Below are positions 3,377 to 17,480 of a stretch of DNA of 64,000 nucleotides, piece by piece. The stretch is from contig OY970290.1 of the NCBI GenBank assembly GCA_963716205.1, forward strand, positions 367,417-431,416, given 5' to 3'. Position numbers and translations under genes: made by a program. The first letter of the stretch is position 1. Every line of letters begins with the position of its first letter. The DNA comes from an uncultured bacterium. GTDB taxonomy: Bacteria; Patescibacteriota; Minisyncoccia; Phycocordibacterales; GWA1-40-21. Below the pieces are notes generated by a model. That model ran no database searches. It worked only from the letters and a program-made list of their open reading frames with translations, and had not been told where the DNA came from.

Positions 3377-3676
3377 ATGGGCCTTTTGTCTGTCGGCAAA
3401 AACCTCCTTGGGTATTATCAGTTTTTAGCATTAAATAAAGTGGAAAAATCACCAAAATTGAGACTCACCGCATTATTATTGTGTTGGTTTTTTGGAGTAT
3501 TTGGCATACATCGTTTCTATGTCGGAAAAGTAGGCACCGGCATACTTTGGCTTTTCACTTTAGGATGTTTCGGGATAGGCGCATTGGTTGATCTCATTAT
3601 GATCGCTTCGGGTTCGTTCAGAGACGGACAAGGTAGACTTGTTCTGCAATGGACCAATTCAGCGACTAAAAACTAA
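3377..3676 (+). CDS. TM2 domain membrane protein
   Basis: The GVFGIHRFYVGKVGTGILWLFTLGCFGIGALVDLIMI pattern is typical of the TM2 domain: two TM helices with a G-rich core. Confidence 0.6.
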   Translation: MGLLSVGKNLLGYYQFLALNKVEKSPKLRLTALLLCWFFGVFGIHRFYVGKVGTGILWLFTLGCFGIGALVDLIMIASGSFRDGQGRLVLQWTNSATKN

Positions 3677-3687
3677 CAAATAAAACT

Positions 3688-4647
3688 ATGGAAACACTTT
3701 TTGTATTTCTCATGCTCGCATCAGTCGTCGGATTGATTGTCGGCCTAACAAAGCCGGAAACAGTGCATTTGAACTCTCGCGGCAAAGTCGGGTTATTTTT
3801 CGGCGGAGCGATTGTGATATTCATCATTCTCACTGGTGCCGGTTCGACGACTCAAACTCAATCAACACCCATTACTGCAACGGCGACGGTTTCAACCACA
3901 ACTTCAAATACATCTCCGGTTGCAACAACTTCCACGTCAACACCAATCGTGCAACCTGTTACTCAAACTCCATCAGTCACAAAAAAGCCTGTGGCAGTTC
4001 AGACGACTCAGCCAGTCGTTTCAACTCCAGTTCAAACTCCTACACCAGTCATAGCACCTGCGCCACAAGCTCCGGCACCATTTACCATCTCAGGCACGGG
4101 ACAAACTGCATCTCGTCAGTTTACTCTCCAGCAAGGACTTGCGATTTTTACAATGAATTATAGCGGAGCTGGTAATTTCATTGTTGACCTTTTGGATAGC
4201 AGTGGGAACGAAGTAGCCAATCTTGCGAATCAGATCGGCAATTACAGCGGTTCTCAGGCGGTCCAAATTCCTGGGACAGGTTCATACATTTTCAATGTGC
4301 AGGCAGGAAGCGCCACTGAAAGCGGATCGTGGAGTATTACAACCAGCCAGCCGATTCCCACCAATGTCTCATCAGTAACTACGCTTACCGGCACTGGTGA
4401 CAAAGCTACTCAATTTTTCAGTCTCTCATCAGGACTCCATACCTTCAACATGAGCTATAACGGCAGTGGTAACTTCATTGTCAGTCTTTTGGACCAGAAT
4501 GGAAACGAGGTGCAGGGACTTGAAAATGTTATTGGTAGTTTCACTGGATCAACTGCCGTTGGCATTGATGCCTCAGGTCCATACCTGCTCAATGTGACGG
4601 CGGGATCGGCAAATTCGGCTGGAAATTGGAGTATCAGTATACAGTAA
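3688..4647 (+). CDS. membrane-anchored surface protein. It has a Thr/Pro/Val-rich linker and two tandem ~95-aa repeat domains
   Basis: There is an N-terminal TM helix and a low-complexity TTSTSTP/QTPTPV linker. Two homologous modules are present: FTISGTGQTASRQFTLQQG...GNFIVDLLDSSGNEV... and LTGTGDKATQFFSLSSG...GNFIVSLLDQNGNEV... Confidence 0.6.
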   Translation: METLFVFLMLASVVGLIVGLTKPETVHLNSRGKVGLFFGGAIVIFIILTGAGSTTQTQSTPITATATVSTTTSNTSPVATTSTSTPIVQPVTQTPSVTKKPVAVQTTQPVVSTPVQTPTPVIAPAPQAPAPFTISGTGQTASRQFTLQQGLAIFTMNYSGAGNFIVDLLDSSGNEVANLANQIGNYSGSQAVQIPGTGSYIFNVQAGSATESGSWSITTSQPIPTNVSSVTTLTGTGDKATQFFSLSSGLHTFNMSYNGSGNFIVSLLDQNGNEVQGLENVIGSFTGSTAVGIDASGPYLLNVTAGSANSAGNWSISIQ

Positions 4648-4668
4648 CCAAACTCAATAATTTAAATT

Positions 4669-5544
4669 ATGCAGTATCCTAAAATAATAACGAAAGAAAT
4701 TCCACTTGATCAAATTCATCCAGATCCGAAACAACCTAGAGGAGATTTGGGAACAGAGGCAGATAATAACAAAAATCGTTTGTTGTTATCTATGAAAGAC
4801 TTTGGATTGCGATCCCCCATCGCTGTTGCAAAGATTGGCGAAAATAAATACAGTATCGTCAATGGTGTTCGTCGTTATCGTTGTGCTCAATTGCTCGGCT
4901 GGGAAACTATACGGTCTGAAATTCACCCCGAATCGAGTATAGGAGATATTAAGCGAATCAGGTTTGATCTTCAAAATAATGTGCGTCCGTGGAAAGCCCT
5001 TGAACGTTCTGGTGAGATCAAGGAAATTAAAAATTCTTTGAAACTCAAAACGAACAAGGAACTTGCTGAATATCTTCACTTTCCTCAAAATTTACTCGCC
5101 GTTTCCCTCTCACTCCAGAAGAGACGTGAGGAGTATCAGGATTTAATGGACGAATATGAACTTTCTGAAAGTTATCAGGAAGAATTTGTTGGCCTTGAGC
5201 CGAAAATCAGACCAATCAAAGATTTTACTAAAGATAACATCATACGTAATCTTCTCGACAGAGTAAAACATATGATTATAAAAAGTGCGAAGGATTTTTA
5301 TAAATTAGGTAGTATTTTTCTCAAAGCTCACCGAAACGAAAAGGAAATTCATAACTTCTTGAAGGACCCGGATATGCGAGTATCGGAGCTTGTAGAAAGA
5401 ACAATTCAAGATGGCTATATGAAGGATTTGGAAAATATCATAAAATTGACAAGCACGAAGATTAGCGAAGGATATGTATTTTCTCCCGAGATAAAAAAAA
5501 TACTTAATCAATTTAGAAACTTATTAACTAAAGCTATTGATTAG
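4669..5544 (+). CDS. ParB-like nuclease domain protein
   Basis: N-terminal PLDQIHPDPKQPRG...IVNGVRRYRCAQLLG matches the ParB/Srx N-domain (GxRRxxA motif). A long helical C-terminus follows. Confidence 0.55.
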   Translation: MQYPKIITKEIPLDQIHPDPKQPRGDLGTEADNNKNRLLLSMKDFGLRSPIAVAKIGENKYSIVNGVRRYRCAQLLGWETIRSEIHPESSIGDIKRIRFDLQNNVRPWKALERSGEIKEIKNSLKLKTNKELAEYLHFPQNLLAVSLSLQKRREEYQDLMDEYELSESYQEEFVGLEPKIRPIKDFTKDNIIRNLLDRVKHMIIKSAKDFYKLGSIFLKAHRNEKEIHNFLKDPDMRVSELVERTIQDGYMKDLENIIKLTSTKISEGYVFSPEIKKILNQFRNLLTKAID

Positions 5545-5546
5545 AT

Positions 5547-6917
5547 ATGTTTACTATTGACGAAAAAAATCTTCCGAAAAAAGCTGTAGCATATTATAGA
5601 CATTCGGCGGAAGACAAACAGGAAAATTCAGTGCCCATCCAGCGTGAGCACGCTGTAAAATTCGCTTCCCAACACGGAATAGAAATTATTCATGAGGAAG
5701 CCGATGAAGGAATAAGTGGATTATCGGGTCTGGACTCAAGACCTAGTTTCAAAAGATTGTTTGAAGAATGGATTGAAAATCCAAAAGCTCCTAAATTTGA
5801 TTATGTGCTTGTGCTTGATGAATCACGTTGGGGAAGATTTCAAAATCCTGACGAAGCAGGACATTTGCAATTTCGTTGTAGTCAACAAGATAAACAAGTG
5901 ATTTATATTGATAGTGGTTTCCCTAGAAAAGATCAACCACTCATGAATAATCTAGCTACTTCTATGAAACGAGCTATGGCCGCCGAGTATAGTCGCAATT
6001 TGAGCGAAAAAGTGATTCGTGGATGTATAGAAATTTCAAGACAGGGATATTCTGCCGGTGGTTGTCCTTGTTATGGCATGGCTCGTATGCTTCTCGATGC
6101 TGAGAAAAAACCAATGTATGTATTAAAACCCGGCGAGCATAAAGCAATTGCCAATGCCCGTGTTACCTTTGTGCCAGCCGAGGACGGAACCAAAGAAGTT
6201 GTTCAAGATATTTTTGCGATGTTTGTCAAAGAACAGAAGACGATGAAAGAAATTGCAGAGGTTCTCAACGAAAAAGGTATTCCCTCTCCGAAAAATAAAA
6301 ATTGGGATGATAATAAGATAGCTCGCATCCTTACCAACGAATCATACATTGGCACAAAGACATATAATAAAACGTGGCATCGTCTCAAACAAAAATCAAA
6401 GAAAAATCCTAAAAGTGATTGGGTTATCGTGCCAAACGCTTTTCCAGCAATTATTGATGTCACAACTTTCAATAGTGCTCAAGAAACCATTCATTGGATG
6501 ATGACAAAACACAGAAAGGGTGGCTACTATCTCATCCTAAGAACACAGCGTCGTGTCGAAAAGGAATTAACAGAATTTTTAATACAGAATGGAATTGATC
6601 CGAATGAATCGCTCGTAGCACTGAATCGCTTCCCTATCATTTACAGTGTTGCTTTATTAAACCAGTCTTCTCCTCAATGGTGTTTTGTCGTGCCAGATAA
6701 AATGATGGGCAGTAATTTAGTATTAGGTGTTGGAATTGGTGCAGATAAATCAGAAAAGAATGAGCGCATATTTGCTATTCCCACAAATGAATTAGGGCTG
6801 GTGAATTTCTGTATGTTTTCAGAGAAAGATGATGACTACTCGCGTTATTTTGTGAAAGAGGAACAAGTTGGAGATACAGTTCTATCTATCACCAAAGAGT
6901 TAATAAACGCTATATAA
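5547..6917 (+). CDS. large serine recombinase
   Basis: Resolvase-type N-domain motifs are present: AVAYYRHSAEDKQ (catalytic Ser), EGISGLSGLDSRPSFKRL and VLVLDESRWGR. A recombinase domain and a Cys-containing region follow. The start is 3 bp after the ParB-like gene. Confidence 0.75.
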   Translation: MFTIDEKNLPKKAVAYYRHSAEDKQENSVPIQREHAVKFASQHGIEIIHEEADEGISGLSGLDSRPSFKRLFEEWIENPKAPKFDYVLVLDESRWGRFQNPDEAGHLQFRCSQQDKQVIYIDSGFPRKDQPLMNNLATSMKRAMAAEYSRNLSEKVIRGCIEISRQGYSAGGCPCYGMARMLLDAEKKPMYVLKPGEHKAIANARVTFVPAEDGTKEVVQDIFAMFVKEQKTMKEIAEVLNEKGIPSPKNKNWDDNKIARILTNESYIGTKTYNKTWHRLKQKSKKNPKSDWVIVPNAFPAIIDVTTFNSAQETIHWMMTKHRKGGYYLILRTQRRVEKELTEFLIQNGIDPNESLVALNRFPIIYSVALLNQSSPQWCFVVPDKMMGSNLVLGVGIGADKSEKNERIFAIPTNELGLVNFCMFSEKDDDYSRYFVKEEQVGDTVLSITKELINAI

Positions 6918-7898: not shown

Positions 7899-10800
7899 TT
7901 ACATTAGTGAAGTAAAATTAAGAAGTGGTCCGTGCTTAACAATAAGCCCAGACTGGATCATCTCGTCCACAATATCTTTAACCCGATCTGCTTCCTCTGG
8001 ATCAATCCTCGGCACTTGGAAAATTAATCTGATACTCTGTATTGCGTTATCATACGCCAAGCCAAACTGATCTTTTATTAAAAAATTAATCGCATTTTTA
8101 ATTTCAATAGCTGGAATTTCCCCCAAACGCCTAACAAGACCATCATCACCAGGAACTCTAAAATATGTGCAATCCTTAGAGGTTGGATATAAAAATCCCT
8201 TATCTGATTTATTTTTTTCTACATACCCTTCTTTTATCACTCTTTTGATTGCATTATCAAAATTATCGCTAATATTTGAACCTACCCTTCCAATGTTTGA
8301 TAATTCTCTCACTCTTTCTAAAAGCACGTCCTGATGTATAGGACCCTCCTCTTCTATAATCGTGAGAAGTGCGTGTGAAAAATTGTGGTTTTTACTTGGA
8401 GTCATCAAATCTTTTCTGTTTATTTTAAACGATGATTTTTCGTATCTTTTGCCTACTTTTTGCACTCTCAGTGGAATTTCAGTTAAAATATAGTCCTGAT
8501 CCAAAGTAGTTGTGTTTGGTTTATCCGATTTAGGACTGCTCCGATGATCATTCTTAATTGCCAAGTTGACATTCTCAACTAAACGCTGAAGAGCTTCATC
8601 CCTGTTTCTAAACCACTCGGTTGACCAAATCCTATATAATTTCCAACCCATTCCAAGCAATATTTCTTGTCTGAGAATATCTCTGTCCCTTGCAGATTTT
8701 GAGCTGTGGTATGTTGCACCGTCACACTCAATGCCGATAATGTAGCTTTGTGGATTTTTTGGATCCTTTACAGCAAGATCAATTTTAAAGGAACCGACTC
8801 CCACTTGAGGATCAACAACAAAACCTCTTGCTTCAAGTTCTCTCCGCACGGAATCCTCAAAATCATTTGTTTCTTCGTTTAAAACTTTTGGCGATTCTTT
8901 ATTACTCAAAAAGCCATTTTCTGCATATTGAATATAGTTTTTTAAACCGACAGGACCGAGATTATCCGGATTGATACCAACCAATTCAGAAGATCGTATG
9001 GAAGTTATTAAAATAGTTTTCCACTTTGCTCTGGTAACAAGAACGTTCAATCGCCTCCATCCTCCCGCTGTATTGATTGGTCCAAAATTCAGAGTCATTT
9101 TTCCATCGGCGGCTTTGCCATAACCAATGCTAATCATTATGACGTCTCGCTCGTCTCCCTGGACATTTTCCAACGATTTTACGAAAAAAGGATTCGTTCT
9201 TTCTGGATCCAAAAGAGGAGCAAGGTCTTTGTTTTCTGTCTGTTGCAGTTCTTCCTCCAAAGCTTCCTGAATCGCCTCTTTTTGAGACGAGTTTAAGGCG
9301 ACCACGCCGAGTGTTTTCTCCGGTTCTGTTTTGAAATGCTTAACAATAAGTTTTGCAGTGTGCCGTGCTTCTTTTCTATTTACTCTACTGCCACCCCGAT
9401 CCCATACACCATCGGAAACGTATTCTAGGATGACGCCGCCTGAACTGGCATCAGACGGAGTTGGAAATGTTATAAGCTGACCGTTGTAATAATAATGATT
9501 AGAAAAATTGATCAATCTTTCGTTACGGCTACGGTAGTGCCATTGCAGATCAGTTTCTGAAAATGCTGGAATTGACGCTTTGCAGTCATCCAAAAGAGAT
9601 TCAAGATCATCTGACTGCTGTTCATCCCATTCATCAGAATCATCCAAGATATTGGTTCTGAAAAAAGAGGTTGGTGGCAACTGTTTTGAATCTCCGGCGA
9701 CAATTACTTGTTTTGCCCTCAGGATTGCTGGAATTGCCTCTGGGGTTGGCAATTGTGAAGCTTCATCAAAGATAACGAGATCAAAATTAAACGCTCCTGG
9801 TTTCAAAAAGGTTGATACCGACAAAGGACTCATTAAAAAGCATGGTTTCAAAGCCTGCAATATCTGCGGAATCTCATTAAACAAGACTCTTAACGGCTTC
9901 AATTTTTTCTTTTTCTCCATCTCTTTTCTCAATATTCCGACGCCGTTGGAGGTGCCAATATTTGCGTGTGCAATCCTCACTTGTCTCGCTGTCTGTGCTG
10001 GTTCGGCTATCAAATTTATAGCGGCGAGGCGAGTAATTCGCTCGTCCAGTATTTTATATTTGCTGATCAGCTCCACTTGGGACATCTGTGAAAATTCACT
10101 GAGAATTGGTTTTGAATAGATCATCGCATCTATCCACAGCGAATAAAATCTCTTCTTGAAAATTTCAGTTGATTTTTCAAAATTCTGATGTCCTATCTTT
10201 TCCAAAAATGGCATCAGCTTATTCTCGTGGCAACGTGAAATTATCCTAGAGATTATCTGCTGTTCCCTAGCGCCTTTTTGATTTAGATTCGGCAAAATGA
10301 GATTTAGATATTTGACAGCATCGAATAATTTCAAAGTTTCAATCTTAAAATTATCAAGGAAGCCGTTCGGCCAAAAAGTATTAATCTCCTGGAGAATTTT
10401 CTTAACTTCCTCCTTATTGGCATTCAAAAAATCAACAAGTTTTGCAATATCATTTGAAACTGAAGCGTTAAATACTGTTTTTTCAGGTATGGTGGCGTTG
10501 ATATTGTTTGCCCAGTTTTTGAGATTGATGGCGGTTTTGGTTTCCAATTTGACAGTGGAAAGATTCTTTAAAATCGTTTGGTCTGAATCGTTATGCAGGT
10601 TTAATTCTTTGAATTTTAAAAAAATCTCATCGTCAAGGATAACTATTTTTTGTGAAATATCAAAAGCTTGTGCAAGATCGCCAAACCGAAAAGATTTTAA
10701 ATTATCCAACATTTGCAATACCGCCTTTTTATCTGAGAAATATTTTAACTTGATTCGTGAATACCAGTTTTTATATGTCTCAAAAAACAAATTAGACCCA

Positions 10801-12629
10801 TCAATAATATCTTTTGGATTGTGTGACGAAAACGACTTTAACTGTTTTTGTAAATCTATTCTGGATTCACAAATTTTTGATAAATCGTCAATTTTCAATA
10901 TCGCATTGTCTAACGTTTCAGTGGTCGTTGTATTCCAACCAACAGGCAGGTTTTGCACCTCGGATAATTCTTTGAAAATACTGAGCGAGGAAAGAATTAC
11001 TGGGATTGGCAAATCAAGACCTCTGACAAAATTGGATATTTTTTCCGTATCTTTATTAAATGACTCGCAAAAAATTTTTAGATTATTCAGATATTCATAC
11101 AAAGATTCCAAAACTGATAGATTAGTGCCATCTGCTTTCATTCCCTTCAGAGGATGTTGATCCCTGACTGAGAAAAGCTGGGCATTTTTATCAACATCAG
11201 AAAGAATTTCCAAGGAATGATCCAATTCACTTTTTGATACTTCTAAAATGTTACTCCATGGCAATGTGGCTTTTATAAGCTCAATGTTTTTTAGCTCTTC
11301 GTATTTACCGTATGCAGAGAAAAGATGTATGGTGAGTGGATTGTTAGTATCGTAAATACTTTTGGTGTAGTCATTCAATCTGTTACGAGCTTCAACCAAC
11401 TTAGAAATATCCTCTTTTAGATTTTTAGCCACTTTAATTTCCTCGTTTGATTCCAGAGTTTTTTTCAATTCGTCAATGACTTTTCTTTTGCCAGATTTGA
11501 CTCCGTGTGCTTCCAAACAGAACGGTCCGAAACCAATTTCTTGCAACCTATTATAAACAACACTGAGTGCAGCCATCTTGGAACTAACAAATAGCACTTT
11601 CTTATTCTGACCCAAAGCATTGGCGATAATTGCTGTGATAGTCTGACTTTTGCCCGTTCCAGGCGGGCCATGAATAACAAGATTAGAACCAAGAGACGAA
11701 AGTGTTAACGCCCTCAATTGACTGGAATCCATTTGAACTACAGGCACTGGAACCTGCTCGGGTGTTTCCAGTGAATCCAGATCACTGTCTAATTTCAGAT
11801 TTTCAATAACGTCATTTCTTAAATGAGCAAGTGCTTGGACCAAAATATTGTTTCTTGCCTGACCATCAAGCAATTTCAAATCTTGATAGATAGCCAGGGC
11901 CTCAAAACTAAAAACGCCCAGCCAAGAACGTCCTGTGACTTTCCAATCGCTTGCCTGGACCGTATTTTTAACCTTATTCAAATATTCGTCTATTTTTTTA
12001 TCATCAAGTGAAAAACTTTCTTCCGTTGTTTCCTTATTGGAATTATTAAAAAGTTCTGGTATGTCTATCTCTTCTCGTTCTTTCAAATAATATTTCAGAG
12101 CCGGATTGATAACAACATCCTCGTCAGCCATAATCAAACTTAAAGCCCTCGTTCCTCCTTTCTGTTCAAGACTGCACGGTATCATTATCAAAGGACTTTC
12201 CGATCTGCCCATGAGGGGATCTTCCCACTCCAGACACCCAATCGTTAAATAAAGTGTATTAACACCACGTTCGTTTAAAGTGCTTTTTGAATTATCATAA
12301 ATTTTCCTGATTTTTCCTCTCAGCTCTTTTGCACCGGAGTATAAAAAAGACATCTCGCCTTCATGCAATATGTAATCTTCGGCAGATTCATCTTCGGAAA
12401 ATAAATCCTTCTTTTTTATTTTTTTCTGAACAAACGGTAATGTGACAGCACTATCATCGGTATATAAAGTTTTCAACAAATATTCAAAATCTGGTTTATC
12501 CAATTCCAGTTTGGCTGCTCTGGAACGATTCAAACCTAACAATGGGTTTGATTTTGAGACATCAATTAAGCGTTCTTGCCAACGCTTTAATACTGCACCG
12601 ATCTTTTCGGATATGGAACTATCATTCAT
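7899..12629 (-). CDS. 1576-aa multidomain protein: N-terminal DUF4011-like region, SF1 (Upf1-like, AAA_11/AAA_12) helicase, DUF559-like (Vsr/PD-(D/E)xK) endonuclease, and DUF3320-like C-terminus
   Basis: Walker A LVIHGPPGTGKSQTI, Walker B/DEAD-like VIFDEASQL, helicase motifs YRSRNERLINF and GWRRLNVLVTRAK. The nuclease motif is IGIECDGATYHSSKSARDRD...GWKLYRIWSTEWFRN. Confidence 0.8.
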   Translation of the reverse strand: MNDSSISEKIGAVLKRWQERLIDVSKSNPLLGLNRSRAAKLELDKPDFEYLLKTLYTDDSAVTLPFVQKKIKKKDLFSEDESAEDYILHEGEMSFLYSGAKELRGKIRKIYDNSKSTLNERGVNTLYLTIGCLEWEDPLMGRSESPLIMIPCSLEQKGGTRALSLIMADEDVVINPALKYYLKEREEIDIPELFNNSNKETTEESFSLDDKKIDEYLNKVKNTVQASDWKVTGRSWLGVFSFEALAIYQDLKLLDGQARNNILVQALAHLRNDVIENLKLDSDLDSLETPEQVPVPVVQMDSSQLRALTLSSLGSNLVIHGPPGTGKSQTITAIIANALGQNKKVLFVSSKMAALSVVYNRLQEIGFGPFCLEAHGVKSGKRKVIDELKKTLESNEEIKVAKNLKEDISKLVEARNRLNDYTKSIYDTNNPLTIHLFSAYGKYEELKNIELIKATLPWSNILEVSKSELDHSLEILSDVDKNAQLFSVRDQHPLKGMKADGTNLSVLESLYEYLNNLKIFCESFNKDTEKISNFVRGLDLPIPVILSSLSIFKELSEVQNLPVGWNTTTTETLDNAILKIDDLSKICESRIDLQKQLKSFSSHNPKDIIDGSNLFFETYKNWYSRIKLKYFSDKKAVLQMLDNLKSFRFGDLAQAFDISQKIVILDDEIFLKFKELNLHNDSDQTILKNLSTVKLETKTAINLKNWANNINATIPEKTVFNASVSNDIAKLVDFLNANKEEVKKILQEINTFWPNGFLDNFKIETLKLFDAVKYLNLILPNLNQKGAREQQIISRIISRCHENKLMPFLEKIGHQNFEKSTEIFKKRFYSLWIDAMIYSKPILSEFSQMSQVELISKYKILDERITRLAAINLIAEPAQTARQVRIAHANIGTSNGVGILRKEMEKKKKLKPLRVLFNEIPQILQALKPCFLMSPLSVSTFLKPGAFNFDLVIFDEASQLPTPEAIPAILRAKQVIVAGDSKQLPPTSFFRTNILDDSDEWDEQQSDDLESLLDDCKASIPAFSETDLQWHYRSRNERLINFSNHYYYNGQLITFPTPSDASSGGVILEYVSDGVWDRGGSRVNRKEARHTAKLIVKHFKTEPEKTLGVVALNSSQKEAIQEALEEELQQTENKDLAPLLDPERTNPFFVKSLENVQGDERDVIMISIGYGKAADGKMTLNFGPINTAGGWRRLNVLVTRAKWKTILITSIRSSELVGINPDNLGPVGLKNYIQYAENGFLSNKESPKVLNEETNDFEDSVRRELEARGFVVDPQVGVGSFKIDLAVKDPKNPQSYIIGIECDGATYHSSKSARDRDILRQEILLGMGWKLYRIWSTEWFRNRDEALQRLVENVNLAIKNDHRSSPKSDKPNTTTLDQDYILTEIPLRVQKVGKRYEKSSFKINRKDLMTPSKNHNFSHALLTIIEEEGPIHQDVLLERVRELSNIGRVGSNISDNFDNAIKRVIKEGYVEKNKSDKGFLYPTSKDCTYFRVPGDDGLVRRLGEIPAIEIKNAINFLIKDQFGLAYDNAIQSIRLIFQVPRIDPEEADRVKDIVDEMIQSGLIVKHGPLLNFTSLM

Positions 12630-12672: not shown

Positions 12673-13449
12673 TTATGCCGTTGGATAACCGAATGAGCGA
12701 AGTATAGCAAGCCAGCTTAAAGATAAAAACCAATCAATCGGTAAATTCGGATATACTTTTATGAGGGGTGATTTTCCTTCCTTATCCTCCCAAATAAGTA
12801 TGTAAGGATCCTTTCTAAGATGTTGAGTTCCTAATGAATGTGAAAATCCAGATCGCATTGCACCGTATATATCTCCAATAACTTCTTCAATGGTGGCAAA
12901 TGATTTTTTGCCTGTTTCTTGTTCCATACCTCTATAATGTTTGATAGCATCTTTCTTTTCCTTTTCTGTAAGCCATTGCGAATAAAATTTTTTTGATCGA
13001 GCAGCATTTTTAGGGAATAATGATTCATGTTTTTTAGAAAATTTACTGATATCTTCCGGGGTCTTTATGTCTTTAAAATTCTCTTTTAAAAATGAAATGA
13101 AACTTTGTGTTTTACTTAAAGCGGTTCTATTTTCTACGATTGAAAACATAACGTGTAGAGCAAGAGTGGATCGCACTATGTTTTCATAATATCCAATACT
13201 TTTTCCTCTCCCATCTTGTTTGAATAGAAGCAACGGTTCCATATAAGTTCTAAAAAAAATTAAGTATCCGCAAAGTTCCGTTTTATCTGATTGTTTTAAT
13301 GCATCAATTATTGAAACCAATAAATTTTTATTCAAAGCTGGGCAAGGATTTTGCAAACATTTATCCAATGTTTCTATTGTATACTCTGCAATTTCAATTG
13401 ATGTTGAATTTATAGATAAATACTTCATATATATTATATCAAGAACCAC
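12673..13449 (-). CDS. hypothetical protein (258 aa), middle gene of the three-gene operon
   Basis: The ORF is flanked at 8 bp and 43 bp by co-oriented genes. No family recognised. Confidence 0.5.
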   Translation of the reverse strand: MVLDIIYMKYLSINSTSIEIAEYTIETLDKCLQNPCPALNKNLLVSIIDALKQSDKTELCGYLIFFRTYMEPLLLFKQDGRGKSIGYYENIVRSTLALHVMFSIVENRTALSKTQSFISFLKENFKDIKTPEDISKFSKKHESLFPKNAARSKKFYSQWLTEKEKKDAIKHYRGMEQETGKKSFATIEEVIGDIYGAMRSGFSHSLGTQHLRKDPYILIWEDKEGKSPLIKVYPNLPIDWFLSLSWLAILRSFGYPTA

Positions 13450-13456
13450 TTCCTAT

Positions 13457-13948
13457 TTAAGTCTTTTCCTCAAACTCCATAAGAAGCGAGAGATAATGCT
13501 TTTGTTTTTCAGTATCAATCCAGGAACTTAAAAGCGGTGATATATTTCCATTTGAAGTAATGATGCGATTTATAGCATCAAAGAAAAAACCTTCTGGTGT
13601 AGCAAGAAAAAGCCATGCAACATTCCAGTGTTCACGCACCTGTTTTGCTATGTTTATGATCTCCTCCGAGGTTGAAGAATGACGATATTTCACCTCAACG
13701 AGATATACTTGGGAACGGTCTTGGGTAATGATTATAAAATCAGGCGCATGGCGTATATTATCCAAAACTTGTTTTACTTCAATGACATGCTGATACTGCG
13801 CTACCTCCGGCACAGTCTTTTCATAACCAAATGGAAGGATAGTAAATTTACCGCAGTCACGAAACATCTGCTCAAAGATAACCTCTGCGATCTTTCCCTT
13901 CAGGAGATCACGGGAAAATGATATTTCTTTGTTTAATGATTTTTCCAC
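13457..13948 (-). CDS. small PD-(D/E)xK nuclease-fold protein (Hjc/Mrr-like)
   Basis: Motif order is E (AEVIFEQ) ... PDFIIIT ... VYLVEVKYR, i.e. E-PD-(D/E)xK. Confidence 0.5.
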   Translation of the reverse strand: MEKSLNKEISFSRDLLKGKIAEVIFEQMFRDCGKFTILPFGYEKTVPEVAQYQHVIEVKQVLDNIRHAPDFIIITQDRSQVYLVEVKYRHSSTSEEIINIAKQVREHWNVAWLFLATPEGFFFDAINRIITSNGNISPLLSSWIDTEKQKHYLSLLMEFEEKT

Positions 13949-14013
13949 AACTGAATATTTTTTATAAACGTCTAATTATTATGGGGATGTCCTAGTTTAA
14001 GGTAGTGAATAAA

Positions 14014-14268
14014 TTATTGTTCAAACTCATTTCTCAATTCTTCTTTTAGTTCTTTTTTTGTATCCTTTAATACTGCGCCAAGTATTGTGTCAAAACCCAA
14101 GAATACACCGAGGTAAAAGACTATGAAAAATATCAAGAACCAAACAAAGTTTTCCTGTACGGCATTTACTATTGCAAAATAAAGCCCTATCGGTGGCAAT
14201 AATATGGATAAGACCTTAATGAGCCAGTCTAAAGCATCCCATAACCACCAATTTTTCCAGTTTTTCAT
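14014..14268 (-). CDS. small membrane protein (passenger in the IS-bounded segment)
   Basis: Two predicted TM helices (WWLWDALDWLIKVLSILLPPIGLYFAIV..FLIFFIVFYLGVFLGF). Confidence 0.4.
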   Translation of the reverse strand: MKNWKNWWLWDALDWLIKVLSILLPPIGLYFAIVNAVQENFVWFLIFFIVFYLGVFLGFDTILGAVLKDTKKELKEELRNEFEQ

Positions 14269-14293
14269 ATACCTAGATTATATCCTTATCCTT

Positions 14294-15154
14294 TTATTCC
14301 CACAAGTTAGGTTGATATTCTTGCCCCATCATTCTGTTGTAGTTATTTTCAAACTTGCGCTTGTCTCCAGAAACTTTAAGGGTTGCTACTACTTGCCATA
14401 TTTGTGAACGAATAGCGGGTAATCCAACCTTTTCACTTAAGTGAGAGTGATGTCTTTTTTTTCTTGATTTTGTAGATGTTGTTGGATTTTTTTCGTCCAA
14501 AACTTTCAACACTTCTCCTTTTTCAAAGGGTTCATAAATATATTTTCGTATGAACCCAGCATAGTATAATGGTCTATTACGAGAAGTTGTTTTTTGATTT
14601 CCATAAATGCGGTCCATTTGATAAAAAAGTTCATCGGGAAATTCTTTTGACCATTTTCTAACTTCTTCAGCTAGATAACTTTCAACGAGCATTCTGAATG
14701 CTTCGGGATGTTTGAATTTTTCGTATCCCAACTGTTCATAAATAAGAGCAGTAATACCTACCGCAGAAAATGCGTCAGACATTGTCTCACAAACTGTGGC
14801 AGTAGGTAACTGATTTTTGGTTAATACCCCTGCTCTTTCAGCATCACGATATACGCGACAAATCAACGGGAGTATTTTTGCATCATATCCAGTAGAAAGC
14901 CGTCCTCCATCATAAAACTCTATTCCTTTCAGCATCTCATCTAATTCAGGACGAATAAATTTTTGAAGATTCATCGCTCCGATAAAACTAGGTTTATCTG
15001 TCCTACTTGAACCTTTCCATGCTCTTCCTAACGCTTTCATCATCTTACCTTTATTCAAAATTGGAGTACCATCTTCAAGTACCGCACAATCTATCTCTAC
15101 CCCGTTCAATGTGATTGGACCGCTTCCCCATGCTTTTGGTATATTTTTTTCCAT
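14294..15154 (-). CDS. hypothetical protein (286 aa), passenger gene, possibly phage-associated
   Basis: Long ORF between the transposase and the IRL. No confident family. Confidence 0.45.
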   Translation of the reverse strand: MEKNIPKAWGSGPITLNGVEIDCAVLEDGTPILNKGKMMKALGRAWKGSSRTDKPSFIGAMNLQKFIRPELDEMLKGIEFYDGGRLSTGYDAKILPLICRVYRDAERAGVLTKNQLPTATVCETMSDAFSAVGITALIYEQLGYEKFKHPEAFRMLVESYLAEEVRKWSKEFPDELFYQMDRIYGNQKTTSRNRPLYYAGFIRKYIYEPFEKGEVLKVLDEKNPTTSTKSRKKRHHSHLSEKVGLPAIRSQIWQVVATLKVSGDKRKFENNYNRMMGQEYQPNLWE

Positions 15155-15172
15155 AAATGGCTTTAATTAAGG

Positions 15173-16045
15173 TTAATTTGATTGGACCGCTTGTAATACT
15201 AATGTATCAAACATTCCTGCATCGCCACGCTTATTGTATCGGAAACAAAACTCGTTGATGTAGGCGTTCAAATGCTTTGCTGTTACATGATGATACTGAC
15301 CGATAATACCACGTTTCAAAAGCGACCAAAAACTTTCAATCGTGTTTGTGTGGGCAATACCAGTAACATAGTTTCCTTTACCATGATTGACTTTACTGTG
15401 TTCAAAGTTCTTTTTGTCCAGTCCATTGTATGCACCCCATTCGTCCGTCATAATATGAGAACCTTTTTTTACATTTTGATTGATGAGCATTTGAAGCGAG
15501 CGAGCATTCACATTGTTTACTTTCTGCGCGCGGACTTCACCACCTCTTTTCAAAACTCCAAAAACTGGCGTTTTGTCTTTTGTACTTCTGCCTTGTCCGC
15601 CCTTTGTTTTATCGTTCCAGTGTTTATTTTTGTTTTTTCCACCGACATACGTTTCGTCCGCCTCAACGATACCCTCTAGCAATGCTCCCTGTTCTCGCAT
15701 AGCTCGGCGAATACGCATGAGCATGAGCCATGCAGTATTCTTGTTGACTTCGATGTCGCGAGCAAGCTGACGTGAACTCATCCCTTTTTTGGCGTTAAGG
15801 ATAAGAGAGATAGCAAGAAACCATTTCTGTAAGTCCAGTTTCGTCTTGTGAAAAATTGTTTTGACCGTTATACTAAAAGATGTATTGCAGGCATTGCAGT
15901 GGTATCGGCTTTCTTTTATAAATTTGGTAACTCGAAGCGAGTTACAATATGGACATTTTGGCTCGCCATTCCATCTGACTTTTTCTAGATGGTCTAGGCA
16001 ATCCTGCTGTGTCGGAAACTGTTTGTATACTTGTATTATGTTCAT
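15173..16045 (-). CDS. IS1595-family (ISXO2-like) DDE transposase
   Basis: N-terminal zinc ribbon CPYC...CNAC. The ETYVGGK, MTDEWGAY and HTNTIESFWSLLKR motifs are typical of IS1595 Tnp. Confidence 0.8.
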   Translation of the reverse strand: MNIIQVYKQFPTQQDCLDHLEKVRWNGEPKCPYCNSLRVTKFIKESRYHCNACNTSFSITVKTIFHKTKLDLQKWFLAISLILNAKKGMSSRQLARDIEVNKNTAWLMLMRIRRAMREQGALLEGIVEADETYVGGKNKNKHWNDKTKGGQGRSTKDKTPVFGVLKRGGEVRAQKVNNVNARSLQMLINQNVKKGSHIMTDEWGAYNGLDKKNFEHSKVNHGKGNYVTGIAHTNTIESFWSLLKRGIIGQYHHVTAKHLNAYINEFCFRYNKRGDAGMFDTLVLQAVQSN

Positions 16046-16161
16046 GGTTTTTTATTACTACCTTTATCTAGGTATAGTACACCATGACGAGACTTGCAGT
16101 CAAGACAATTTCTGTGTTGTAACTGTTTTATTCACTACCTTAAACTAGGACATCCCCATTA

Positions 16162-16806
16162 TTATTTCTTAACCTTATAAAATTTCATCTCTACTCCACT
16201 GTATCGCTCGATCAATCCCTCATAAATTAAACCTTCAAGGGGTTCATAATCCTGATATTGATCTATCTGTGCCAATGCATTTCTATAATCATCTTTATTT
16301 TCTTTTTCGATTTTTATGGATATACCGACTAATCCGTATCTCTCCAAAATCAGATTTGCCGCTAATCGTGCCGTTCGTCCGTTCCCTTCTCTAAAAGGAT
16401 GGACGTTGGTAATCAGATGGTGGAGCCATGCCGCAGTTCGTATAATCTTTTCAATCGCATCAAGCACTTCTTCCGTTACATCTTTGGCAATAATCAGTCC
16501 TTCAACTTTCTCCAAATTTTTTAATCGTATGATAAGTTCGTCCTTCGCTTTTTTCATATATTCATGCACCTGTGAATGATGCGGCGGCAGATGTTTTGAA
16601 TCAGTTATTTCCAGATTTTCATCACGATACTTTCCGGCAATTTCAGGCCACGCATGTTCAAAAATGCACTTATGAATTTCTGATATGGTATCTATGGTGA
16701 TCGGTTTGTGAGAATGGGCGTAGGTTCTCACAAAACGAGAAGCGCGGATAACTCCAATCGCTTCTCGTTTCTGCATTTCCTGTTCGTCTTTCGGTCTTTC
16801 CACCAT
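16162..16806 (-). CDS. Fic/Doc family protein (AMPylase-type toxin core)
   Basis: Fic active-site motif HPFREGNGRTARL. Confidence 0.8.
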   Translation of the reverse strand: MVERPKDEQEMQKREAIGVIRASRFVRTYAHSHKPITIDTISEIHKCIFEHAWPEIAGKYRDENLEITDSKHLPPHHSQVHEYMKKAKDELIIRLKNLEKVEGLIIAKDVTEEVLDAIEKIIRTAAWLHHLITNVHPFREGNGRTARLAANLILERYGLVGISIKIEKENKDDYRNALAQIDQYQDYEPLEGLIYEGLIERYSGVEMKFYKVKK

Positions 16807-17016
16807 TTATTTTACGTCTTTAGCTAGTTTCTCAAATTCTTTACGGCCTAATTTACTTCCTTCAAGAGCACTTGAATAATATGCATGTTCAACATCCCAT
16901 GCTTTTTCAATTTCAGATTTTTGAGCAGGGGTAAGTTTTGAAAGTTGTTTCTGGGCTGTTTGTGCCACGGAAAAAAGCTCTCTTGCTAATGTTTTGTTTC
17001 CATTCATTGTTGTCAT
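16807..17016 (-). CDS. Fic_N / FicA-like antitoxin (69 aa) carrying the inhibitory SxxxEG motif
   Basis: YYSSALEGSKL matches the (S/T)xxxE(G/N) inhibitory helix. It is in the same frame as the fic core, separated by a single TAA directly followed by ATG. Confidence 0.5.
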   Translation of the reverse strand: MTTMNGNKTLARELFSVAQTAQKQLSKLTPAQKSEIEKAWDVEHAYYSSALEGSKLGRKEFEKLAKDVK

Positions 17017-17190
17017 ATTATTATAATGTTATTATAACATCTCAATGTTACTATAGAGCACTGGTTTAATCAAGACTGAGTTAAATCACTACTTTTGGCT
17101 TGCTGTGGTCCTCGTGGTTGCGACTTTTACCATTAGTTGTGATATTATCCGTTTAACCCAGAAATAGGCTCATTTGGCTTAGAAACGTAT

Positions 17191-17222
17191 GTTCTTACAT
17201 CGTTCAACATTCGGAGCAGAAA
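17191..17222 (+). repeat. cassette-boundary repeat R0 (degenerate copy)
   Basis: gttcttacatcgttcaacattcggagcagaa, compared with the consensus gttctaacttcctctatccannggagcagaa. Confidence 0.5.
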
Positions 17223-17291
17223 TTAGACAAATATTATTTATTTTGATAATCTAAATTTGGAAGCAGTTATCTTATTTGAAGGGGTGAGATT

Positions 17292-17480
17292 GTGGAAATT
17301 AAAGGAAACTACGTAAAGGTTGTCTATAGTTCTGAATCAGTCCTTTTGAATACGCCGGCAACGATTGATATTTATGAGAAAGGTAAACTAATTGTAAAAT
17401 TAAACGCAACGGTTGTACCACAAACAGGAGCTGATTCAAAACAATATCCATCCGTTCAAATTAAGGTGACTAGTCCTTAG
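17292..17480 (+). CDS. small hypothetical protein (cassette 0)
   Basis: RBS aggggtgag upstream of a GTG/TTG start. Confidence 0.3.
   Translation: MEIKGNYVKVVYSSESVLLNTPATIDIYEKGKLIVKLNATVVPQTGADSKQYPSVQIKVTSP

Follow-up and report, generated by a model that had tools for sequence, protein, structure and literature searches.

An apparently intact IS1595-family insertion sequence with a P63C-domain gene behind its transposase, lodged in a cluster of Fic and nuclease/helicase genes

INTRODUCTION

The window analyzed here is a stretch of 64,000 nucleotides from an uncultured bacterium of the Patescibacteriota (contig OY970290.1), and within it, at positions 13983-16157, lies a unit of 2,175 bp that is bounded by 31-bp perfect terminal inverted repeats (IRs) starting GGGGATG and that holds three open reading frames (ORFs) on the minus strand: a transposase gene (ORF1 or tnp), a gene for a P63C-domain protein (ORF2), and a small ORF with predicted transmembrane segments (ORF3). 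We regard this unit, with high confidence, as an intact insertion sequence (IS) of the IS1595 family, of the kind known as a transporter IS (tIS), in which the P63C gene is a constant second gene. A reading of the window from its sequence only (hereafter the sequence-only reading) had already placed three minus-strand ORFs inside the IRs, at coordinates with which the ORF listing agrees. In the sections below, we describe the ends and genes of the element, its relatives in other genomes, the degenerate copies in which the P63C gene outlasts the catalytic part of the transposase, and the gene cluster into which the element has inserted, and we conclude with a comparison to known systems.

TERMINAL INVERTED REPEATS AND TARGET-SITE DUPLICATION

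A direct comparison of the two arms confirms that 13981-14013 is the perfect reverse complement of 16127-16159, and it was on this basis that the sequence-only reading proposed an element of 13981-16159 with 33-bp IRs. The repeats themselves stand, but those ends lie 2 bp too far out; once they are set at GGGG (13983) and CCCC (16157), a perfect 8-bp direct repeat, ATTATTAT, is found at 13975-13982 and 16158-16165, abutting both ends of the element. This resolves the target-site duplication, which had been called ambiguous because of the misplaced ends, into a clean one. The duplication is AT-rich and nearly palindromic, and for that reason the IR seems to be 33 or even 40 nt long: a repeat search extends the arms to 13974-14013 and 16127-16166, at 95% complementarity over 40 nt. 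The cargo-proximal copy of the duplication adjoins the tnp-distal repeat (IRR; 13983..14013, plus strand; GGGGATGTCCTAGTTTAAGGTAGTGAATAAA), which scores 33.9 against a position weight matrix (PWM) of the family consensus and is perfectly complementary to the tnp-proximal repeat (IRL; 16127..16157, minus strand), and the tnp-proximal copy beyond IRL contains the stop codon of a neighboring Fic-domain gene (16162-16164). In the window, the 31-mer GGGGATGTCCTAGTTTAAGGTAGTGAATAAA is found at two places only, one on each strand, and 100 dinucleotide-preserving shuffles contained no match to it even when three mismatches were allowed. The ends of the element read GGGGAT-GTC; it has terminal IRs of the IS1595 type, starting GG and conserved among related elements, together with an AT-rich target-site duplication of 8 bp. 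No Rfam family matches positions 13000-17300 at E <= 1.

THE TRANSPOSASE

The tnp gene (15173..16045, minus strand) encodes a protein of 290 aa with a zinc-ribbon and helix-turn-helix (HTH) N-terminus followed by a DDE catalytic domain. Pfam assigns it to Zn_ribbon_IS1595 (PF12760, E 5.9e-10) and DDE_Tnp_IS1595 (PF12762, E 3.8e-48), and NCBIfam to transpos_IS1595 (NF033547, 230.6 bits against a cutoff of 75), in agreement with the sequence-only reading, and a weaker cross-match is obtained to the NCBIfam family transpos_IS1 (E 1.6e-8). In an alignment with 19 relatives, the cysteines C31, C34, C50, and C53 as well as D201, N234, E237, K244, and E265 are invariant, and D130 and R269 are conserved in at least 90% of the sequences. 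A broken DDE triad had been named beforehand as an argument against such an element; the catalytic residues D130, D201, and E237 are present and intact, as is K244 seven residues after the glutamate. The resulting pattern (D, D, E+K7, E..R4) resembles that of the ISNwi1 subgroup, the members of which combine DDEK with ER4, have ends of the form ggnnatTAT, and include passenger-carrying derivatives of 1.75-4.75 kb. The named transposases closest to tnp in annotated plasmids are those of ISPepr2, ISRhtr1, and ISRama1, at 32-37% identity.

A heptamer identical to the IS1 frameshift site, A AAA AAC (A6C), lies at 15632-15638 on the minus strand, where the DNA-binding domain of tnp gives way to the DDE domain, and a stop codon in the -1 frame follows two codons further on. 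An IS1-like programmed frameshift was considered for this site and rejected, the heptamer being present in only 2 of 21 relatives; it probably represents just the lysine and asparagine codons of an AT-rich gene.

RELATED ELEMENTS IN OTHER GENOMES

With each GTDB species represented by one genome, a scan returned 37 related loci, with transposases 41-77% identical to that of the window, in Patescibacteria, Bacteroidota, Proteobacteria, Acidobacteriota, and other hosts. Both ends could be delimited in 20 of them, and these share a common IR consensus, GGGAATGTCCTAGTTAAAGGTAGT; the possibility raised by the sequence-only reading that the IRs might be unique to this locus is thereby set aside, the same IR type standing at 20 related transposase genes. 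Perfect AT-rich duplications of 8 bp flank the IRs in 14 of the 20 delimited relatives, and one more shows a 7/8 match. The P63C gene follows tnp directly in 28 of the 33 loci in which a second gene could be assessed (in the other four, the sequence stops no more than 155 bp past tnp) and falls between the IRs in every one of the 20 delimited elements; the two genes overlap by 4 nt at one extreme and are separated by a few tens of nucleotides at the other. The smallest elements (L002, L007, L013, L020, and L026; 1.9-2.06 kb) consist of tnp and the P63C gene only, and larger ones, up to 3.7 kb, carry a third gene ahead of the distal IR. This third slot holds Bro-N, N6/N4 DNA methylase, Clp-protease-like, or small membrane ORFs, genes without assignment, or nothing, and relatives with differing third genes still show 8-bp duplications outside their IRs. 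The element of the window is thus a two-gene core with one variable cargo ORF, not a 1-kb IS with two passengers; of the two passenger genes proposed in the sequence-only reading, ORF3 can be kept as cargo, but ORF2 belongs with tnp.

Beyond this group the pairing ends: transposases at or below 48% identity are without a P63C gene, and other genes may follow them. Two sister-lineage IS1595 transposases of 47-49% identity, on p28 of Entomospira culicis (L059) and on a plasmid of Bacteroides faecis (L060), are followed by second genes other than P63C, which encode a 601-aa AAA ATPase and a 423-aa hypothetical protein, respectively. Within the group, the identities of the two core proteins to those of the window are discordant (tnp/P63C: L002, 74%/31%; L003, 72%/82%; L006, 66%/82%), which points to an exchange of the P63C module among related elements.

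It might be argued that the unit is no active IS, being either an immobile fossil or a piece of phage DNA, and that its membrane ORF and P63C gene are remnants of a prophage that happen to lie beside a transposase gene; there is something to be said for this, in that the P63C family is typical of phages (phrog_2384; 62 phage records), the unit is single-copy in the window, and it sits in a mosaic island with a serine recombinase, a ParB-domain gene, and defense-type genes nearby. We nevertheless consider it very improbable: the 31-bp IRs and the 8-bp duplication are perfect, all ORFs and catalytic residues are intact, the same gene order, IR type, and 8-bp duplications are found in 14 unrelated genomes of several phyla, and GC composition shows no break at the element.

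Two of the related loci display additional repeats. On a contig of a Bacteroidia metagenome-assembled genome, a 240-bp inverted duplication, 96% identical (L010:1-240 and 3547-3786), brackets a related element, which could reflect either an IS-associated rearrangement or an assembly artefact. In Hymenobacter lutimineralis KIGAM108, the IS and about 1.8 kb of further sequence lie between the arms of a perfect 32-bp inverted repeat, GGCCTTCTTATAGCAGCGGGGGGATAAAATTA (L013:4881-4912 and 8734-8765), the left arm of which ends in the target duplication of the IS, so that this IS may sit inside another repeat-bounded unit.

THE P63C PROTEIN AND THE THIRD SLOT

ORF2 (14294..15154, minus strand) encodes 286 aa, the C-terminal domain of which matches Pfam P63C (PF10546; aa 156-247, E 4.6e-19, 69.2 bits against a cutoff of 26.1), and aa 2-280 match phrog_2384 at E 2.4e-77, which places the protein in the P63C family. 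Searches of PADLOC, NCBIfam, and Pfam provide no defense or functional assignment beyond P63C. Among relatives, the nonsynonymous divergence (dN) is 0.13-0.32 and synonymous sites (dS) are saturated, and the gene is therefore under purifying selection. An AlphaFold2 model is of moderate quality (pLDDT 73.7), with a confident beta-rich N-terminal domain, and its comparison with viral models gave matches to Bro-N, KilA, and repressor domains, all sub-threshold.

Full-length homologues of ORF2 occur in 62 phage records and 20 plasmids, the phage proteins being about 30-35% identical over 92-98% of the protein. In phage ST104, the gene lies between cI and gene 24 (orf23); in prophage Javan515, it is found between the repressor and the integrase genes (Javan515_0058); and in phages DC1 (gp5) and Barco, it adjoins the integrase gene, so that in all four phages inspected it belongs to the lysogeny or early accessory region. 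Among the papers searched, none ties P63C to IS1595 transposases. Most likely, the P63C gene is an accessory gene of phage origin that has its own function, in regulation or in conflict between mobile elements, and that travels in the IS and is regulated together with it; a role as a transposition cofactor is less likely, and both are weighed further below.

The third slot of the window element is held by ORF3 (14014..14268, minus strand), which is predicted to encode 84 aa with two transmembrane segments, the hydrophobic stretches lying around aa 15-35 and 31-68, and the stop codon of which abuts the inner edge of the IR. It has no match in Pfam, PHROG, PADLOC, or NCBIfam and no homologue among 5.8 billion proteins, and in its closest relatives the slot is taken by other small membrane ORFs, unrelated to this one; it is a putative orphan gene that may or may not be real. 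The P63C gene and ORF3 are separated by 25 nt (14269-14293, minus strand) that contain TATAAT and an inverted copy of an 11-mer of the tnp leader, TATACCTAGAT (E 0.009), which may be there by chance.

THE LEADER AND A PROPOSED FUNCTIONAL CYCLE

Between the tnp-proximal IR and the ATG of tnp (16045) lies a leader of about 112 nt, in which a scan for the sigma-70 consensus locates a putative tnp promoter (16074..16103, minus strand) made up of TTGACT (16103-16098), a spacer of 18 nt, and TACTAT (16079-16074); a TTGAC-N17/18-TAnnnT motif recurs at the matching leader position in most relatives. One nucleotide past the -10 hexamer and about 12 nt ahead of the ATG is a direct copy of the IR core, CCTAGATAAAGGTAGT (16057..16072, minus strand), a putative operator with a core PWM score of 23.9, which is on par with the terminal IRs. 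A same-strand copy of the IR core is present at element position 66-86 in 12 of 21 elements, and the order IR, promoter, IR-core copy, about 10 nt, and ATG is conserved in position among relatives. The overlap of a putative transposase-binding motif with the predicted start of transcription suggests that tnp may be autoregulated, in the manner of IS1, where InsA represses its own operon. The promoter calls follow the sigma-70 consensus, which may not apply in a Patescibacteria-type genome.

Taken together, these features lead us to propose a cycle in which the transposase N-terminus would recognize the IR core, CCTAGnTAAAGGTAGT, at both ends of the element, and the DDE core would cut the ends and join them into a staggered AT-rich target of 8 bp. 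The sigma-70-like leader promoter would drive all three genes, and the transposase, or its N-terminal domain, bound to the internal IR core past the -10 hexamer, would repress its own operon as InsA does. The present copy has inserted into a spacer of 30 nt between the stop codon of the Fic gene and the GTG of the next gene.

MOBILITY AND COPY NUMBER

The mobility of this particular copy is suggested by its intactness and by its target-site duplication, and several observations weigh against our assignment of the unit as a whole. The sequence-only reading had looked to further copies for confirmation, and none came to light: the 64-kb window contains no second copy, the IR GGGRATGTCCTAGTTTAAGGTAGT found no match in the JGI metagenomes, and a degenerate IR consensus found none in IMG/VR. 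An exact-protein look-up recovered no empty site, the Fic protein appearing in the same sample only and the 163-aa protein of the downstream gene having no record. The sole other record of the element is Logan contig L001, which equals positions 13984-16156 of the window at 100% identity and probably derives from the source sample. To these points are added a Foldseek search of the ORF2 model against the PDB that returned nothing below E = 1, so that it offers no function for P63C, and the predicted nature of the promoter, the operator, and the read-through into neighboring genes that is discussed below.

A further Logan contig, L039, ends at the IS. We considered the Logan contigs as evidence of multiple copies and rejected them as such, given that a de Bruijn graph built with k=31 is expected to break in exactly this way wherever a perfect IR reaches 31 bp or more.

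SHORT FORMS AND TRANSPOSASE-FREE P63C GENES

A number of loci (L030, L032, L035, L037, L038, the P0027 loci L042-L050, the P0072 loci L051-L055, and L063) carry a short form in which tnp is reduced to an ORF of 128-154 aa that represents the zinc-ribbon/HTH N-terminus and stops at D130 or shortly ahead of it, the DDE core having been deleted at the domain boundary at about aa 126-135 (for example, L042:3040-4370 and L063:1471-2902). Wherever the sequence continues, the short ORF is followed by an intact P63C gene; the contig of L030 ends about 140 bp past the short ORF. Most short-form loci keep a remnant of the tnp-proximal IR, a distal IR could be detected at none of the loci, and L063 retains the promoter together with the internal IR core. 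The short-form protein is found on more than 20 contigs from many samples in a fixed context, with an MmeI-type restriction-modification gene or a ResIII helicase gene alongside. In a rough neighbor-joining tree of P63C proteins, which carries no support values, the short forms are scattered over at least four positions between full-length elements, a distribution that points to recurrent loss of the DDE domain, as far as such a tree can indicate.

At L036:5001-7398, a short N-terminal ORF with its P63C gene is immediately preceded by a different IS1595-type transposase gene (41% identity), an arrangement that may represent a nested or adjacent insertion.

Even the N-terminal remnant can be missing: the P0004 P63C protein (L061:3501-4364 and L062:1471-2334) is 81% identical to that of the window and is accompanied by neither a transposase nor an IR remnant, its neighbors being HNH, DUF1508, a 210-aa ORF, ThsB-TIR, and NUDIX, a phage- or defense-island-like context.

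These loci bear directly on what the P63C protein might do. One proposal is that it serves as an accessory factor or regulator of transposition, acting with the transposase N-terminus in assembly of the synaptic complex, choice of target, or control of activity. Its fixed place as the next gene after tnp, where the stop codon of the one often overlaps the start codon of the other, its presence in every delimited element, and the sub-threshold structural resemblance to DNA-binding proteins of the Bro-N, KilA, and repressor types would all fit such a role, as would the joint retention of the zinc-ribbon/HTH ORF, the P63C gene, and the promoter and operator after the DDE deletion, which is compatible with a functional tie of P63C to the DNA-binding N-terminus. 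A gene that served transposition only should, however, decay after loss of the catalytic domain, whereas the P63C gene is intact and constrained in the short forms; moreover, the P0004 homologue has no transposase remnant or IR beside it, and the full-length homologues elsewhere are ordinary phage accessory genes unlinked to transposases. We therefore hold a transposition cofactor to be unlikely. The short forms, the P0004 gene, and the exchange of modules between elements favor instead a function of P63C that is independent of transposition.

A more far-reaching version of this idea, which we put forward tentatively and with some doubt, is that the zinc-ribbon/HTH protein and P63C, under their operator-controlled promoter, form an autonomous two-gene module that is spread by IS1595 elements and outlives them. 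It is prompted by the persistence of the N-terminal ORF, the leader, and the P63C gene after loss of the DDE domain and by an order of genes that mirrors the repressor-then-P63C order of prophages. Were it true, P63C proteins would be the effectors of a widespread and uncharacterized mobile-element system, either regulatory or devoted to exclusion or defense, of which the IS1595 lineage described here would be one vehicle.

THE INSERTION SITE AND NEIGHBORING GENES

The element interrupts a co-directional cluster of minus-strand genes in the order 69 aa, Fic, 163 aa, 258 aa, and 1576 aa. Immediately upstream of the IS is the Fic-domain gene (16162..16806; Pfam Fic, E 1e-17; PADLOC PDC-S04 and SoFic), which has the HPFREGNGRTAR motif and the reading frame of which remains intact because its stop codon lies within the duplicated 8 bp. 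It is abutted upstream by the 69-aa ORF (16807-17016), part of the context and not of the element, which is preceded in turn by a promoter-like site at 17045-17017 with 10 of 12 consensus matches, and the two genes could constitute an antitoxin-Fic pair that heads the interrupted cluster. The first gene downstream (13457..13948) encodes 163 aa with weak similarity to TnsA-N and type II restriction endonucleases and begins with a GTG at 13948, 32 nt from position 13981, as the sequence-only reading had it. Further along, a 1576-aa helicase-nuclease (7899-12629) combines DUF4011, a superfamily 1 helicase (AAA_11/AAA_12), an MTES_1575 nuclease domain, and DUF3320, and matches PADLOC PDC-S37 over its full length at 1162 bits, as well as Hhe.

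Once the IS and one of the two 8-bp copies are taken out, the Fic stop codon is separated from the GTG at 13948 by 30 nt, and the reconstructed empty site reads ...AACGTCTAATTATTAT|TTCTTAACCTTAT...; the IS has entered a short spacer, splitting the cluster without breaking any ORF. So narrow a spacer leaves little room for a separate promoter, which makes it unlikely that a native promoter was displaced, as the sequence-only reading had suggested; the downstream genes were probably transcribed from upstream, and they would now be reached only by transcription that crosses the IS or starts inside it. The same reading had also offered an outward promoter in the element, and none stands out: there are 14 promoter-like sites, against 11.9 +/- 3.5 expected by chance. 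A terminator scan found none at the exit of the IS, between ORF3 and the 163-aa gene, and folding of the RNA from 14045-13935 gave no stable hairpin (minimum free energy -9.4 kcal/mol, z = +1.0), so that read-through from the IS into the downstream genes seems plausible from the arrangement of the DNA.

Whether the insertion has rewired the nuclease/helicase genes, either by driving them from the IS through read-through or an outward promoter or by silencing them through polarity or promoter loss, is a question on which we lean toward the negative while granting that it is a real possibility. All genes are co-oriented, no intrinsic terminator or stable hairpin is predicted in between, and the original 30-nt spacer implies dependence on upstream transcription, which must now cross the 2.2 kb of the IS; on the other hand, no outward promoter is predicted, promoter-like matches in the region stand at the level of chance, the tnp promoter would contribute little if it is autorepressed, and the sigma-70 consensus is of uncertain validity in this host.

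The 163-aa gene and the gene that follows it (window 12673-13948, minus strand; L056:5001-5899; L057:1335-2640) recur as a pair in unrelated neighborhoods, where homologues of the 163-aa gene lie after EcoRII-C/Vsr/Dcm, or after Replic_Relax and before the coupling protein of a type IV secretion system. The next gene after these homologues encodes 237-258 aa (258 in the window, 237 at L057 and L058, and cut by the contig end at L056), which suggests a mobile two-gene module. Fic is absent from the neighborhoods of the homologues examined, and the recurrence of the pair elsewhere without it marks the cluster as a mosaic of modules. Elsewhere in the window, at 3688-6917 on the plus strand, three genes in a row encode a 319-aa protein without assignment, a protein with a ParB_N domain, and a large serine recombinase (Resolvase + Recombinase), and the region in its entirety may belong to an integrated mobile element.

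IMPLICATIONS

Any reading of the Fic, nuclease, and PDC-S37-like helicase cluster as one operon or one defense system must account for an insertion of 2.2 kb in its midst. The element itself is ordinary, and the retention of P63C with the zinc-ribbon/HTH N-terminus after recurrent DDE loss is its only unusual lead; a constant P63C partner that survives such loss provides a starting point for the function of an uncharacterized protein family of phages and mobile elements, and the pairing bears on where the line between the "passenger" and the "core" genes of insertion sequences is to be drawn.

COMPARISON WITH KNOWN SYSTEMS

A search of PADLOC-DB 2.0 with tnp, the P63C protein, and the 84-aa ORF gave no match at E <= 0.01, whereas the neighboring Fic and 1576-aa proteins do match, and the closest parallels to the element are found among insertion sequences and phages. 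IS1595-family ISs with passenger genes have been named "transporter IS" (tIS; Siguier, Gagnevin & Chandler 2009, as relayed in PMC3129680 and PMC12561309), and the present element corresponds to them in its zinc-ribbon and DDE transposase, its GG-starting IRs, and its AT-rich 8-bp duplication, as well as in having extra genes, here ORF2 and ORF3, between tnp and the distal IR, with relatives of 1.9-3.7 kb. It differs in that one passenger, P63C, is constant and only the third slot varies. ISApl4, of the IS1016 subgroup of the same family, has the IR GGGGCTGTACTAGA and A/T-rich direct repeats of 8 bp, and is a single-gene element of 712 bp with 39 copies, often in non-coding regions (PMC12561309). 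Its IR agrees with GGGGATGTCCTAGT of the present element at 11 of 14 positions, an end of the form GGGG(C/A)TGT(A/C)CTAG being on record for ISApl4, and the A/T-rich 8-bp repeats and non-coding insertion are likewise common to both, but the element described here measures 2,175 bp, carries three genes, and is seen in one copy.

The likeness to IS1 is one of related families, as the NCBIfam cross-match indicates, and of regulatory design, since both have an N-terminal zinc-finger/HTH part (InsA in IS1, as against the full InsAB' transposase) that could act alone as an IR-binding repressor and an IR-like site at the tnp promoter. Unlike IS1, the present element shows no support for a programmed frameshift, and InsA-like short proteins are confined in its lineage to degenerate copies, where they result from loss of the DDE core. 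Finally, the P63C proteins of phages (Salmonella ST104 orf23, Streptococcus Javan515_0058, and Burkholderia DC1 gp5) are homologous to ORF2 over their full length, and the gene is similarly placed directly downstream of, and co-oriented with, a gene for a DNA-binding regulator (cI in ST104 and the repressor in Javan515); in phages, however, it stands alone in the lysogeny or early region, whereas here it is enclosed within the ends of an IS, behind the transposase gene.

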